This document shows positions 5,550-13,924 of a DNA stretch of 28,698 nt, in pieces (position 1 is the first letter of the stretch; each line of letters starts with the position of its first letter). The DNA comes from Colwellia polaris. GTDB lineage: Archaea; Nanohalarchaeota; Nanosalinia; Nanosalinales; Nanosalinaceae. Under the pieces are notes generated by a model. That model was not told the DNA's origin. It did no database searches and saw nothing but the letters and a program-made list of their open reading frames with translations. The position numbers were made by a program, and so were the translations under genes. The stretch covers positions 1 to 28,698 of the forward strand of contig JBLGBK010000010.1 of assembly GCA_047617785.1 (NCBI GenBank), in the 5' to 3' direction.

Positions 5550-8513
5550 ATGAAAAACGACATTCAACAAAAGGCAGACTTCAAACTGCCTGTCAAACGT
5601 TCAACTGGTGAAACAGTTGAGGAAAGACTCACAGAAAATGCCTACGAACGAATTCTACCGGCGCGATACCTACTCAAAGACCAAGACGGTAATGTAACAG
5701 AAACACCGGAAGAAATGTTCGAAAGAGTCGCAAAAAACGTTGCACAGCCAGACAAAGAATACGACGATGTGGATTTCGAAGACTCTTGGCAAGAGTTCAA
5801 AGACCTGATGTCCCATCAGAAGTTCATGCCTAACTCTCCAACACTGATGAATGCTGGAGCAGAACTGCAGCAGCTATCTGCTTGTTTTGTTGTTCACCCT
5901 GAAGACGATATGGATTCGATCTTCAATACTGTTCACGACGCTGCAAAAATCTTCCAGAGTGGAGGAGGAATGGGATATCCTTTCCACCTACTAAGACCAA
6001 AGGGAGACATCGTCTCAAGTACAGGAGGAGTAAGCTCTGGACCGATGAGCTTCCAGCAGGTCTTCGACACTATGTGCGGAACGATTAAGCAGGGAGGAAA
6101 GAGAAGAGGAGCACAGATGGGAATTATGAGAGTGGACCATCCTGACATCCTTCGCTTCATCACAGCAAAGAGAAAGGAAGGCAATCTCTCCAACTTCAAC
6201 ATCTCAGTAGGACTGACAGATGACTTCATGGAAGCAGTCAAAAACGACGAGGAATACACACTGATCAACCCTCGAACCGATGAACCGTTCGAAGTCGCAG
6301 AAATGACTGCACAGTTCTACAACAACGATGAAGAATGGCATCCGGAAGCCGCTGGATCAGACCAGGGCAAGGACGACAACTTCTGGAGAGATCATGCATC
6401 AACCTTCGGAGAAGAGATCGAAGAGTTCGACATCAATCTTCAACCTGGCGAAGAGATGACAATCCCCGCCCGATTCATCTGGGAATGCCTCGTAGACGGT
6501 GCGTGGAGAAACGGAGAACCAGGACTCTTCATGTACGACGAAACCAACGAAATGCATAGCTTCGACACAGAAAAACACCCAGAACACAGTATCGAAGCAA
6601 CAAACCCTTGTGGAGAACAGCCACTTGAAAACTACGAAGCCTGCAACCTTGGACACATCAACCTCTCACTCCTTGTAGAAGATCACGAAGATGGAACAGC
6701 ACTAAGCTTCCCAGAATGGAAACAGGCACACCAAAGCGACTACAACTTCAAAGACGAACAGGAACTGCAGGAAGCAGTAGAAGAATACCTGCAGGAAGCA
6801 CTCGACATGGAAGAGTTTGAATACGTCGCCAAGACAGGATTCAGATTCCTCGACAACGTAGTCACCATGTCCGACTTCCCACTGGAAGAGATCGAAGACA
6901 CAGTTACAGATCTCAGAAAGGTAGGACTAGGATTGATGGGATACGCACAGATGCTCATCCAGCTCGGAGTACGCTACGGAAGCGACGAATCAATAGCAAT
7001 CGCAGAAGAAATCCAGAGAATCATCACACGCTTCTCCATAGAAGAAAGTAACCGACTCGCTGAAGTACGAGGAGAGTTCCCAGAATGGGAGAAATCCAAG
7101 TGGGCAAACCCAACAGAGTACGCAGAATGGTTCGAACAGTACACAGGAGGCCTAGAACCTGAAGAATTCGAAGATGGTCTCAAGATGAGAAACCACAACA
7201 CAGTAACCATCGCACCAACCGGAACAACCTCCATGATTGGAAACACCTCCGGAGGATGCGAACCAATCTACAATCTTGCCTACTTCAAGAACGTCGCAAA
7301 GGACATCCAAGGAGAAGACATGCTCGTCGAATTCGACGATTACTTCATCAAAGCACTGGAAGCAAACGATGTAGACGTAGAAGAAGTCAAGAGAGCAGCC
7401 CAGGAGAAGATGGAGAACAACGAATGGGACGGAGTAGAATCCATTCCTGACGATGTTATCCCTGCCGACGTGAAGGAAATCTTCGCAACGGCAGATCAAG
7501 TAAGCCCTGATGAACACGTTGACATCCAGGCAGCATTCCAGAAATACAACCATAGCGGGATCAGTAAGACCTGCAACTTCCCTAACGAAGCAAGCAAAGA
7601 AGATGTCCGCGACGCATACATGAGAGCTTACGACAAAGGAGTCAAAGGCATGACAGTCTACAGAGACGGAACAAGAGACACACAGGTCATGCAGACCAAC
7701 AAGGAGAACACCTTGACTGATATGGACAAGGTTGACATGCTTTCCGAAGTCATCGAAGAGTTTGGCGGAGCAGAAAGCCTGCTTCAATCCAACGAATTCG
7801 AAGAAGTAGTAGGAGACACAGACCTTGAAGTACAGGAAGAACACGAAGAAATCCAAAGTAAAGAAGAACTTGAACAGGAAGTCACACAGGAAGGTATCCA
7901 AGCCGACTCGCAGGACGCAGGACAGCACACATCCATGGGTGACAACCAGAAAGGAATCAAAGAACGACCAAAGGTAGCACAAGGAACCACACAGGAAATA
8001 GAAACAGCCTACGGAGACCTGTTCGTAACCATCAATAACTCCGAGAACAACGGACCGTTCGAAGTATTCGCCAACCTCGGGAAATCAGGAGGTTACACAC
8101 AATCCTTCACACAGGCACTCGGTCGAATGACATCACTCGCACTACGCTCAGGTGCATCAGGGGAAGACGTCATCAAACAACTGGACGACATCCGAAGCCC
8201 ACAGATTGCATGGGACCAAGGAACACAGATCCACTCCGTACCTGACGCAATCGCAGAAGCAATGAAGCGGCACATGAAAGTAGAGAAAGGAAGCCAGCAG
8301 ACAGTCGACCAGTACGACGCACCAGCAGACACACAAACCAGCGTCGACGCACAGACACAACCAAAAACCCAAGAAGAACAAACCGCAGACAGGCAAGACG
8401 CAGCACAGATCATAGCCAACGGCGACAACCCAGAATGCCCTGAATGCGGAGGCATGCTAGTCCTCCAAGAGGGATGTAACAAGTGCCCTGAATGCGGATA
8501 CTCGAAATGTTAG
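5550..8513 (+). CDS. nrdJ: adenosylcobalamin-dependent (class II) ribonucleotide reductase with C-terminal TSCPD domain and Zn-ribbon/Cys tail
   Basis: [38 protein letters not shown] (thiyl Cys), [24 protein letters not shown]; TSCPD region IHSVPDAIA; tail [19 protein letters not shown]. No ATP cone and no intein seen. Confidence 0.95.
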
Positions 8514-8679: not shown

Positions 8680-9198
8680 TTAGTTCAATGCTGATCTCTT
8701 TTTAAATGGTACATCTAGTGTTATTGGCCCGCTTCCAAAATGAAGTTGTCCTTCAATCTCTAAGTGAGACTTTTCTCCTTTCAATTTGTTTGAAAGAACA
8801 TCTACACCACCTATTGCGAATCCGGTTATATCTGCGTTTACTCTATCTCTTATTTGTCTTTTTCCTTTGGCTGGAATTACAGTGCTTTCTTGCATGCTGC
8901 CTTCAGTTATTTTTTCTCCATTAATATACGCTTTATAACTGATTCTGTCCAAGTTCGCAGGATAGGGGTTAGGATTCTCTACAGGTATCTTAAACACAAA
9001 TATTAGCCCTTGGGCTCCAATATCAATGTCTTCTAAACTAGGTTCTCCTACTTCCAAAGGTTGAATGACTCCTGAGGCGAACTGTCCGGTTATTCCTGTT
9101 ATATTCAGTAGTTGAGGCAATTTAGGCACCATTATAAAGCTAAAAATGATTATAGCTCCGCTAATCGCTATAAGTCGACCTAATCTCTTTTTGTTAAT
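8680..9198 (-). CDS. LEA type 2 (LEA_2/WHy) family protein with N-terminal membrane anchor; probable ATT start
   Basis: VENPNPYP..LDRISYKAYING...G...IPAKG...IEGQLHF..G..LDVPF fits LEA_2. The frame extends upstream of the 9132 ATG to ATT at 9198, adding NKKRLGRLIAISGAIIIFSFI, with AGGAG 7 nt before the ATT. Confidence 0.8.
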   Translation of the reverse strand: MNKKRLGRLIAISGAIIIFSFIMVPKLPQLLNITGITGQFASGVIQPLEVGEPSLEDIDIGAQGLIFVFKIPVENPNPYPANLDRISYKAYINGEKITEGSMQESTVIPAKGKRQIRDRVNADITGFAIGGVDVLSNKLKGEKSHLEIEGQLHFGSGPITLDVPFKKRSALN

Positions 9199-11101: not shown

Positions 11102-11707
11102 TTATCGATCTTCTCCTAGAATGAGTTCTCCTTTGATGAATCCTTCGAGTGCTCTCTTGGAGTCTGCTTTAGATAGACCTGCTTCAGAAGCTATTGCTTC
11201 TATGAGTTCTGCTTTGTTCATAGGGCTTTCTTTCTGGTAGAGTCCTGTTCGTGCACTTCTCTTCGAGATCTCTGTTCCTTTTATTTCAAGGGTGTCTCCT
11301 TTTCTTTCTGCTGCGATAGCTACATCGGGGTATCCGTCCCCGTCAAGGTCTCCTAGATCAAGTCCGTTTACAGTTTTGGAAAGTTCTGCTCCTGCCTTGA
11401 ACTTTGGATCCTTTTTCTCAGCTTTGACAGCTGAAACTATTGTACCTTGGTTTGTTGAGATTAGCTCCGTCTCCGTTAAATCTCCTAGTCCGTCTCCGTC
11501 GCTATCGGAATCGCTGAAATTCCAAGTGTAGACTGCGAGCGCTACTTTCCCTTGTCTGATGGTGTTTTCAGGACATGTTTCTGGACCACATTTCTCTTGG
11601 TATAGCGGATTGCTGGCTTCAGCTCCTCGATCCTGATAAATTGGATTCGCAAGAACTGCTGTGCTCAAAGCCAGAGCGAGCGTCATAAATATTACGATTT
11701 TTTTCAT
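11102..11707 (-). CDS. secreted mosaic protein carrying HU fragments and FG-GAP, TSP3-like and NPxY motifs
   Basis: Signal peptide MKKIVIFMTLALALSTAVLA. Internal segments PKFKAGAELSKTVN, ISKRSARTG and MNKAELIEAIASEAGLSKADSKRALEGFI (HU-like), LGDLDGDGYPDVAIA (FG-GAP) and DSDSDGDGLGD. Confidence 0.75.
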   Translation of the reverse strand: MKKIVIFMTLALALSTAVLANPIYQDRGAEASNPLYQEKCGPETCPENTIRQGKVALAVYTWNFSDSDSDGDGLGDLTETELISTNQGTIVSAVKAEKKDPKFKAGAELSKTVNGLDLGDLDGDGYPDVAIAAERKGDTLEIKGTEISKRSARTGLYQKESPMNKAELIEAIASEAGLSKADSKRALEGFIKGELILGEDR

Positions 11708-13375: not shown

Positions 13376-13924
13376 ATGTCCGAATATGATTTCTCCAACG
13401 TTGATCCAGAAGCATTTGACTGGCTTGATTATGCAGAGGAATTCTTCAAGCACGATGGCGATTTTGACTACGGACGTGTTCGCACTATACCTGCGAGAAA
13501 TGGCAAATCCTATGTAAATATTGAAGACGAGTTCAGGCAGCTTGAGGAAATGTATGAGGCTGCTCCTGATAAAGTAGCAGAGCCACTGATGACTTTAGAA
13601 AAGAATGGCGAAGTTCGGGGTTTCTACATAGAACGAGTTGAAGGAGAACATATTACCGATTACTTTAGCGAGGGAAAAGGAGATATAGAAAGGCATCTAG
13701 AGATTTTAGATAAGGTAGAAGAGTTCGTCAATACTATGGGCGAAGAAGGTCTAGTGCACGGCGATTTATCGAACAATATTCTCTATGACGGGGAGCGCAT
13801 CAAAGTTATTGATCCGGTCGGTCAGCCCGAGGAACAAGAAGACTTTGAGATTTTCCGGGAACTAGACGAAGGCTCTTTACAAGTACTGGAGAACCGATCA
13901 CCGTATCTATGGAGCCAGAGTTGA
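13376..13924 (+). CDS. atypical protein-kinase-like protein (RIO/Bud32/APH superfamily)
   Basis: EFRQLEEMY (helix C), VAEPL, YIERVEG (hinge), GLVHGDLSNNIL (catalytic loop), IKVIDP (Mg-binding). Confidence 0.7.
   Translation: MSEYDFSNVDPEAFDWLDYAEEFFKHDGDFDYGRVRTIPARNGKSYVNIEDEFRQLEEMYEAAPDKVAEPLMTLEKNGEVRGFYIERVEGEHITDYFSEGKGDIERHLEILDKVEEFVNTMGEEGLVHGDLSNNILYDGERIKVIDPVGQPEEQEDFEIFRELDEGSLQVLENRSPYLWSQS

Follow-up and report, generated by a model that had tools for sequence, protein, structure and literature searches.

How does a protein that carries a Sec-type signal peptide, encoded by a nanohaloarchaeon, come to hold three stretches of bacterial HU in the reverse of their normal order? 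The question is raised by a gene on the minus strand at 11102-11707 of the window, by which we mean the whole 28,698-nucleotide stretch of contig JBLGBK010000010.1 (assembly GCA_047617785.1, Colwellia polaris; GTDB lineage Nanohalarchaeota) that was analysed. Its product, P0001, belongs to a nanohaloarchaeal protein family. We lean towards reading it as a secreted acidic mosaic of Ca-binding type, put together and rearranged through recombination between short modules, and not as a working HU; its function is inferred throughout.

On sequence comparison, all three HU pieces are confirmed as real and above chance. The first-pass annotation of the window had placed a C-terminal word, an arm base and a helix pair of HU at 11366-11407, 11243-11269 and 11135-11221, and these positions translate exactly into PKFKAGAELSKTVN (residues 101-114), ISKRSARTG (147-155) and MNKAELIEAIASEAGLSKADSKRALEGFI (163-191). 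Along the protein the pieces correspond to HU 72-90, then about 38-60, then 1-29. This map bears out the reverse order, as well as the view that neither a simple fusion nor a circular permutation is involved. BLASTP against the haloarchaeal tandem HU P0035 (Halalkalirubrum salinum) returns three separate matches: the N-terminal helices (E 6e-13), the C-terminal word KFKAGAELSKTVN (13/13 identical, E 3e-5) and a middle match (E 5e-5) in which DGYPDVAIAAERKGDTLEIKGT and, after a three-position gap, EISKRSARTG fall on the end of HU helix 2, strands 1-2 and the arm base. Against P0057, a 90-residue HU of Bacteroidota type, E is 1e-13, 2e-5 and 1e-4 for the N-terminal, C-terminal and middle pieces, respectively. 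The map against 14 single HU proteins places residues 96-114 on HU 72-90, 124-155 on HU 26-60 and 163-191 on HU 1-29; we set the middle piece at about 136-155 because the first half of the HU 26-60 stretch fits an FG-GAP loop better. Most of the 25 family members show the same piece order, with two or three matches per real member, compared with 36 matched regions in 780 shuffles of 39 proteins (0.046 per protein).

Profile comparison with hhalign gives probabilities of 98.7 for the N-terminal helices, 90 for residues 29-114 on HU 19-90 and 82 for residues 85-182 on HU 1-89, with column confidence near zero outside the exact words. Pfam alone (PF00216) recognizes the N-terminal helices only, at positions 1-29 of 90 (E 1.6e-6), and the NCBIfam HU models all remain far below their cut-offs (HU-beta 20.4 bits versus 157). 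It had been considered that only these 29 residues might match HU; this is not the case, as the C-terminal and middle pieces are each significant by themselves (3e-5 and 5e-5). The Pfam result would be the one point in favour of a chance resemblance or an artefact of assembly or annotation, an explanation that is already refuted by the exact words of 13/13 and 9/9 residues with shuffle-controlled pairwise E values, by the 25 conserved clusters, which include complete genomes of named cultivated nanohaloarchaea, by the presence of the same DNA in 17 sequencing runs, 13 of them possibly from the window's own sample, and by synonymous variation at invariant residues.

The gene and its product are laid out as follows, with the predicted local distance difference test score (pLDDT) and the ratio of nonsynonymous to synonymous differences (pN/pS) where relevant.

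11102-11707, minus strand: whole open reading frame, 201 residues plus stop (TAA, 11102-11104); window protein P0001, member of the nanohaloarchaeal family (alignment A1).
11648-11707, minus strand: Sec-type signal peptide MKKIVIFMTLALALSTAVLA, residues 1-20, judged by eye; probable cleavage before NP.
11522-11647, minus strand: leader, residues 21-62, with NPIYQ...NPLYQ, the Cys pair C40 and C45 and the strand GKVALAVYTW; pLDDT mostly <50.
11480-11521, minus strand: first Asp-rich loop of Ca-binding type, NFSDSDSDGDGLGD, residues 63-76; DxDxDG pattern, with D66, D68 and D72 invariant.
11366-11422, minus strand: HU C-terminal piece AEKKDPKFKAGAELSKTVN, residues 96-114, equivalent to HU 72-90 (BLASTP); pN/pS 0.19, pLDDT <50.
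11309-11365, minus strand: FG-GAP-type Ca-binding loop GLDLGDLDGDGYPDVAIAA, residues 115-133 (Pfam PF01839); G119, D120, D122, G123, D124 and D128 invariant.
11243-11302, minus strand: HU middle piece KGDTLEIKGTEISKRSARTG, residues 136-155, equivalent to HU ~38-60; GFG core lost, ending before RNPxTG.
11222-11242, minus strand: linker LYQKESP, residues 156-162; variable, pN/pS 0.50.
11135-11221, minus strand: HU N-terminal helix pair, residues 163-191, equivalent to HU 1-29 and starting from HU's own Met (PF00216); pLDDT 86-91, pN/pS 0.19.
11105-11134, minus strand: tail KGELILGEDR, residues 192-201, the start of an EF-Tu domain-3 word, VTGEIILGEDRDMVMPGDNV, that is longer in relatives; pN/pS 0.11.

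The signal peptide was called by reading and is not the output of a predictor; it is nearly invariant across the 25 aligned sequences (M1, L10, S15, T16, L19, A20 and P22). The second Asp-rich loop, with the core GDLDGDGYPD (residues 119-128), matches PF01839 at 23.5 bits against a cut-off of 22.1 (E 5.1e-5), and at positions ~100-160 the family profile matches hundreds of long multi-repeat proteins of FG-GAP type. The loop at residues 63-76 may likewise bind Ca, judging from the likeness of its DxDxDG pattern to the FG-GAP loop. With FG-GAP or integrin-type repeat proteins the window protein thus shares residues 115-133 above the Pfam cut-off and this further DxDxDG loop. Unlike them, it has one repeat above the cut-off plus one loop instead of a seven-bladed propeller, and the space between and after the loops is filled by HU words; neither the AlphaFold2 model nor VIA indicates a propeller.

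Direct reading of the window protein finds neither the GFGxF core of HU, with IKGTEIS in that place, nor the RNPxTG arm tip with its intercalating proline, where ARTG is followed by LYQKESP. The middle piece varies within the family: the relative P0017 keeps GFG directly before ISKRSARTG, one subclade has replaced the piece, and at residues 147-155 the members read ISKRSARTG, IDKRSARTG, ISKRDARKG or IDKKDIRKG, the last of which is an EF-Tu word. Because the arm and the strand core are lacking, the order is scrambled, the mature protein is acidic (net charge -10) and an export signal is present, we consider that the product cannot act as an HU; in a halophile the charge would be only a hint with regard to DNA binding. 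Compared with HU and IHF (the DNABII family, PF00216), the N-terminal helix pair is word for word HU 1-29 and is modelled as IHF-alpha 2-41, and KFKAGAELSKTVN and ISKRSARTG are HU words. In contrast to HU and IHF, the pieces are reversed and separated by Ca-type loops, GFGxF and RNPxTG are absent, only 29 of 90 model positions match, the protein is acidic and has a signal peptide, and the AlphaFold2 model shows no HU fold.

AlphaFold2, using the 25-row alignment, gives a mean pLDDT of 67, with values of 84-91 at residues 121-190, where the Ca loop, a hairpin and both HU helices lie, and below 50 across the KFKAG stretch (residues 99-113). The first-pass annotation had envisaged a permuted HU fold that is rebuilt; it is seen neither in this model nor, beyond the helix pair, by Foldseek or VIA, both of which follow sequence order. 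Foldseek finds 0 matches in the PDB at E <= 0.001 and VIA 0 of 48,161 chains at Z >= 5 (best Z 3.1). In VIA, residues 2-41 of IHF-alpha (1ihf_A) superpose on window residues 162-201 only (40 residues, root-mean-square deviation 1.3, Z 2.6). The ESM Atlas gives no usable feature match, and only the helix pair resembles HU clusters. A homodimer prediction for residues 50-201 with the family alignment scores 0.01 against a mark of 0.42 and is not used as evidence either way.

These data bear on whether the pieces might refold, alone or as a dimer, into an HU-like body that binds nucleic acid outside the cell. Apart from the arm tip and the GFG turn, each part of the HU body is represented once, the helix pair is modelled as in IHF (r.m.s.d. 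1.3), the pieces are under the strongest constraint and exported HU relatives occur in the same habitats. However, the AlphaFold2 model has no HU fold and a disordered C-terminal piece, Foldseek and VIA match neither HU nor IHF beyond the helices, the DNA-bending arm is absent from an acidic mature protein (net charge -10), and the middle piece is wholly replaced in one subclade. We therefore regard a permuted working HU as very improbable.

Where does the HU wording come from? It had been described as closest to that of Bacteroidota, and the titles of the best 80 genome loci for the matching 90-residue HU indeed name Bacteroidota in almost every case, such as Crocinitomicaceae, Fluviicola, Flavobacteriales and Marinilabiliales; a few are of Chlorobi type and one is of another kind (61-83% identity). 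A closer source is found in 95 HU proteins of hypersaline origin (P0026-P0120): 67 of them agree with the C-terminal piece in at least 12/13 residues, 79 agree with the middle piece in 9/9, and for the N-terminal piece identity goes up to 26/29, compared with maxima of 11/13, 8/9 and 25/29 in 51 Bacteroidota HU genes. All three pieces best fit one HU clade, namely the Bacteroidota-type HU that halophilic archaea carry as tandem HU behind signal peptides (13/13, 9/9 and 26/29). Many of the 95 are tandem HU proteins, with names from Halorubrum, Halorubellus, Halovenus, Halapricum and Haloarculaceae, and those of Halorubrum, Halorubellus, Halovenus and others are annotated as 'HU family DNA-binding protein'.

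The premise that HU is cytoplasmic does not hold universally here. A twin-arginine (Tat) signal, called by a simple RR pattern, directly precedes the HU Met (MNKAEL) in 56 of the 95 halophile proteins, and others have Sec-type signals (for example P0026, P0091, P0053 and P0115). From these signals haloarchaeal HU appears to be exported. A literature search for HU with Tat or Sec signals in haloarchaea, and for the family of the window protein, found no paper. In another family of the phylum, L089 (G008:C48) and L090 (G007:C9) encode HU-like proteins of ~80 residues (Pfam positions 2-56) with a short arm region and no signal peptide; these represent a different and probably cytoplasmic HU relative.

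The halophile tandem HU proteins are the closest in wording for all three pieces, stand behind Tat or Sec signals and in some cases have Asp-rich loops between their HU halves (P0068). They differ from the window protein in their normal order and in a complete second HU domain that includes the arm, where the window protein has no complete unit, and they show no FG-GAP match and no EF-Tu words (0/5 Sec-type examples). They also match PF18291, the Pfam model of the HU-HIG clade. In the part of Burroughs et al. 2017 (PMC5499826) that deals with this clade, HU-HIG is a fast-diverging, lineage-expanded HU derivative of Bacteroidetes that is joined to non-DNA-binding parts and whose N-terminal HU domain is still intact. 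In contrast, only HU fragments are present in the window protein, and PF18291 is not among its listed matches at E <= 10.

HU is not the only bacterial housekeeping protein represented. The tail of the window protein is identical to the EF-Tu P0271 (Fluviicola) in 8/11 residues (pairwise E 0.012), and that of its orthologue P0022 in 12/12 (E 8e-4). Several relatives extend beyond GELILGEDR with ...GEIILGEDRDMVMPGDNV, and P0007 has the full domain-3 word at its end in addition to VDILGMGAEKL and, close to the N-terminus, a KAEIYVLK stretch. A segment of 49 residues from P0007 draws 54 PDB sequences at E <= 10, 52 of which are EF-Tu, all at the same domain-3 site (best E 8e-4). Residues 212-294 of P0017 have 58 matches in 5.8 billion proteins, consisting of 57 EF-Tu clusters and P0017 itself, and the named clusters are all from Bacteroidota (Fluviicola, Brumimicrobium, Cryomorphaceae, Flavobacteriales and Bacteroidia). 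Relative to P0271, P0017 shows GEIILGEDRDMVMPG, then IVPVAMDKGLRFA and then, out of order, RGIDKKDIRR (EF-Tu 279-290, 11/12). EF-Tu matches occur in 20 of 40 related proteins versus 22 regions in 800 shuffles. No whole EF-Tu domain (PF03143) rises above the Pfam cut-off in the relatives with EF-Tu pieces, and the aEF-1alpha of the window's own genome is normal and does not contain these words.

An EF-Tu scaffold underlying the family was considered and rejected. BLASTP drew residues 73-209 of P0002 collinear with EF-Tu 215-358, but hhalign of the family profile against 48 EF-Tu sequences gives a probability of 0.2-0.3%, with or without the tail, and therefore only discrete words of the family are EF-Tu. 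A phylum-wide EF-Tu search was dominated by translational GTPases and is uninformative on the pieces. In five Bacteroidota genomes searched with P0009, the HU and EF-Tu genes were found, together with two weak matches (E 0.03-0.06) to residues 154-195 in frames of 83-85 residues.

There are signs that modules are exchanged between relatives. In the family tree, which comprises 24 of the 25 members with the fragment P0025 left out, the sisters P0007 and P0021 (support 100/100) have different tails: an EF-Tu word in the former and a continuation of HU helix 2, AFINATTKASDKR, in the latter. The same AFINATTKASDKR tail is found in the distant P0008. P0122 (478 residues) contains the family's modules in another order. 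The multi-HU protein P0124 carries, behind a signal peptide, HU 1-77, 34-50, 1-50 and 53-90 plus two arms in a row, and a leader-like NPLY...NPLY motif is also present in it.

Other proteins hold single HU parts as well. P0121 (709 residues, lipoprotein-like) has three repeats of a unit in which the HU C-terminal word KFKAGAELSKTV, and no other HU part, lies between a MopE-type metal-binding motif (PF11617, E 3e-9) and a DxDGDG loop. In five nanohaloarchaeal proteins with signal-peptide-like N-termini (L091 and L099 from G031:C2, L093 and L100 from G020, and L096 from G030:C27) the HU arm occurs alone, as (S)ARKGRNPQTGKEIKIPAKKV (Pfam positions 51-77 of 90), next to a SiaC piece (27.9 bits versus a cut-off of 24.5) and the tail-tube domain of T4 gp19 (E 1e-15 to 1e-18); weaker matches to CSD, eCIS core and EF-Tu domain 3 in these proteins are below the cut-offs. 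The relative L097 (G034:C19) has the EF-Tu word VTGEIILEE after its HU helices and, with nothing in between, the HU arm GRNPQTGKEIKIPAK behind that word, at which point the contig ends; the EF-Tu hairpin occupies the place of HU strands 1-2.

The first-pass annotation had argued for three separate insertions from one donor gene. This is not established, and decay of an HU array has to be taken seriously as an alternative. Here a tandem ancestor with at least three copies behind a signal peptide would have kept the C-terminus of copy 1, the strands of copy 2 and the helices of copy 3, the reverse order being a by-product that requires no insertions. Tandem and multi-HU proteins with signal peptides do exist, and P0124 offers such a layout, with its two arms and a leader like that of the family. 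The hhalign alignments of residues 29-114 to HU 19-90 (probability 90) and of 85-182 to HU 1-89 (82) can be read in the same way; the middle (26-60) and N-terminal (1-29) pieces overlap in HU numbering and therefore involve more than one HU copy; and the last unit in G034 (L097) still has an arm after the helices. For the HU order alone the array accounts about as well as assembly from modules. On the other hand, it leaves unexplained the EF-Tu pieces, their partly wrong order and the differing sister tails, as well as the single HU arms in gp19-type proteins and the tripled KFKAGAELSKTV module of P0121. The hhalign matches beyond the exact words have near-zero column confidence, and residues 115-133 are FG-GAP-like and not HU helix 2. 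We consider decay of an array possible, with the balance tilted against it. Exact EF-Tu pieces in relatives, together with the differing sister tails, speak for piecewise assembly.

The pieces are old, as had been suspected, and their codons are host-like. The G+C content of the gene (44.7%) is near that of the window (43.0%), and few codons are identical at identical residues in comparison with the five best-matching of 51 Bacteroidota HU genes: 2-7/11 in the C-terminal piece, 2-4/7-8 in the middle piece and 8-12/23-25 in the N-terminal piece. The proposed check for saturation gave synonymous sites near saturation, with pS 0.5-0.8 among four orthologues. In these four, pN/pS is 0.19 for both HU-C and HU-N and 0.11 for the tail with the EF-Tu piece, compared with 0.38 over the gene as a whole and 0.92 across residues 134-146. 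FKAGAELS (25/25 sequences) and GDLDGDG are invariant, with up to four different codons per invariant residue. The near-saturated synonymous sites and the low pN/pS together indicate that the pieces are old and have been kept by selection on the peptide.

Both HU and EF-Tu are abundant proteins in bacteria. The first-pass annotation had proposed repeated sampling of a highly expressed foreign gene or transcript. In its full form, a dedicated or recurrent process would sample such genes or transcripts (HU, EF-Tu) and insert short pieces in frame into an acceptor gene for a secreted protein. Two of the recognised donors are abundant and both point to Bacteroidota, and the pieces, all in sense orientation, come and go between close relatives. 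Against this, the pieces in the window are old, with synonymous sites near saturation; no second copy of any piece, template or cassette was found elsewhere in the 787-kb genome; the nine neighbours scanned include no reverse transcriptase or similar gene; and the bias towards abundant donors may be an artefact, as 10-30 residues reveal conserved families only. Sampling in this full form is unlikely.

Mosaic surface proteins are built by recombination of modules, and segments smaller than a domain are reused across folds. The present family resembles such proteins in that its modules are short, differently ordered in relatives and swapped between close relatives. It differs in that its modules reproduce, almost exactly, parts of housekeeping proteins that are cytoplasmic and belong to another domain of life; here they stand behind a signal peptide and are maintained by purifying selection.

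In the reading we prefer, that of a secreted mosaic, the HU stretches (C-terminus, strand and arm base, N-terminal helices) would sit among two Asp-rich loops of the FG-GAP kind, and the start of EF-Tu domain 3 would close the protein. The family would have been assembled, and would still be reshuffled, by recombination of short modules, with bacterial DNA and a pool of signal-peptide proteins derived from HU as the sources. Outside the cell the product may have a structural or adhesive role that depends on Ca. An association handle could be provided by the HU helix pair, and the invariant KFKAGAELSK, held between the two Ca loops, could be an exposed contact site.

Several points weigh against this reading. 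The function is wholly inferred and the signal peptide was judged by eye. Residues 29-114 taken as one decayed HU copy (HU 19-90, hhalign probability 90) would fit a decayed array equally well. The EF-Tu stretch of the window protein itself, at 8/11 and E 0.012, is weak on its own, and as only conserved families are recognizable from short pieces, the 'housekeeping donors' may reflect detection bias. The 95 halophile HU proteins were collected because they have words in common with the query, and the panel is thereby biased towards exact agreement with all three pieces. The structural model is only moderate (pLDDT 67, with the invariant KFKAG <50), and a fold that depends on a partner or on Ca could be missed. 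Finally, the family is patchy: of the 70 genomes from the phylum 6 have it, and neither of the two others in the genus does.

The family consists of 25 clusters, and the window protein has full-length relatives in the 24 others (48-69% identity). The named members are all Nanohaloarchaeota: Candidatus Nanosalina sp. VS9-1, Ca. Nanohalovita haloferacivicina, which is cultivated together with Haloferax, and a Nanohaloarchaea metagenome-assembled genome. Mis-annotation as HU, which had been predicted, is found in the databases, where NCBI gives 'HU family DNA-binding protein' and JGI 'nucleoid DNA-binding protein'. The main text of the paper on Ca. Nanohalovita haloferacivicina (PMC10266531) contains 0 occurrences of 'DNA-binding'. 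The six genomes in which the family profile finds the gene all lie within the window's own taxonomic family (5 of 49 besides the window genome); the two other genomes of the genus, in which an orthologue was not found, are 89% and 74% complete.

As contig C10, the window belongs to a genome of 787 kb (22 contigs, 96.6% complete) in which this gene is the sole PF00216 match; the genome has no gp19 match and its cold-shock gene is normal. The neighbours are ordinary and include a ribonucleotide reductase with a C-terminal TSCPD domain (5550-8513, plus strand), LEA_2 (8680-9132, minus strand) and a RIO-type kinase (13376-13924, plus strand); no related function was found among the nine scanned. 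One of six window neighbours was matched near an orthologue (a RIO-like gene in L006), with flanks of 1.5 kb only. Upstream of the gene, a TTATA word ends 28 bases before the ATG, a spacing that would be compatible with an archaeal promoter and a transcript whose leader is short or missing. All 17 listed sequencing runs with the gene are DNA and no RNA run is listed. An antisense open reading frame of 79 residues lies at 11292-11531 (plus strand), with similar ones in L002 and L004; the codon composition of the sense gene probably gives rise to them as a side effect.

Protein evolution is usually described in terms of whole domains that change, duplicate or fuse. Here, a conserved signal-peptide protein contains stretches of 10-40 residues that derive from two bacterial housekeeping proteins unrelated to each other; these stretches are scrambled and yet the most constrained parts of the gene. 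More speculatively, and with considerable doubt, Nanohaloarchaeota and perhaps other members of salt-lake communities may build secreted proteins from short in-frame sense pieces that originate in bacterial proteins of high abundance and then come under purifying selection. HU and EF-Tu, whose pieces point to donors of Bacteroidota type, would be among the sources, perhaps with others; the pieces could be captured by short-patch DNA integration or from transcripts, and the displayed peptides could serve outside the cell, for example as mimics or interaction handles. If it is true that the pieces were captured singly, this would be a little-known route to new genes in tiny-genome organisms that live on other cells. 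The HU-type proteins of hypersaline archaea stand largely behind export signals, which points to an extracellular role. For the present family the label 'HU family DNA-binding protein' is misleading, and would wrongly imply a bacterial-type nucleoid protein in nanohaloarchaea.

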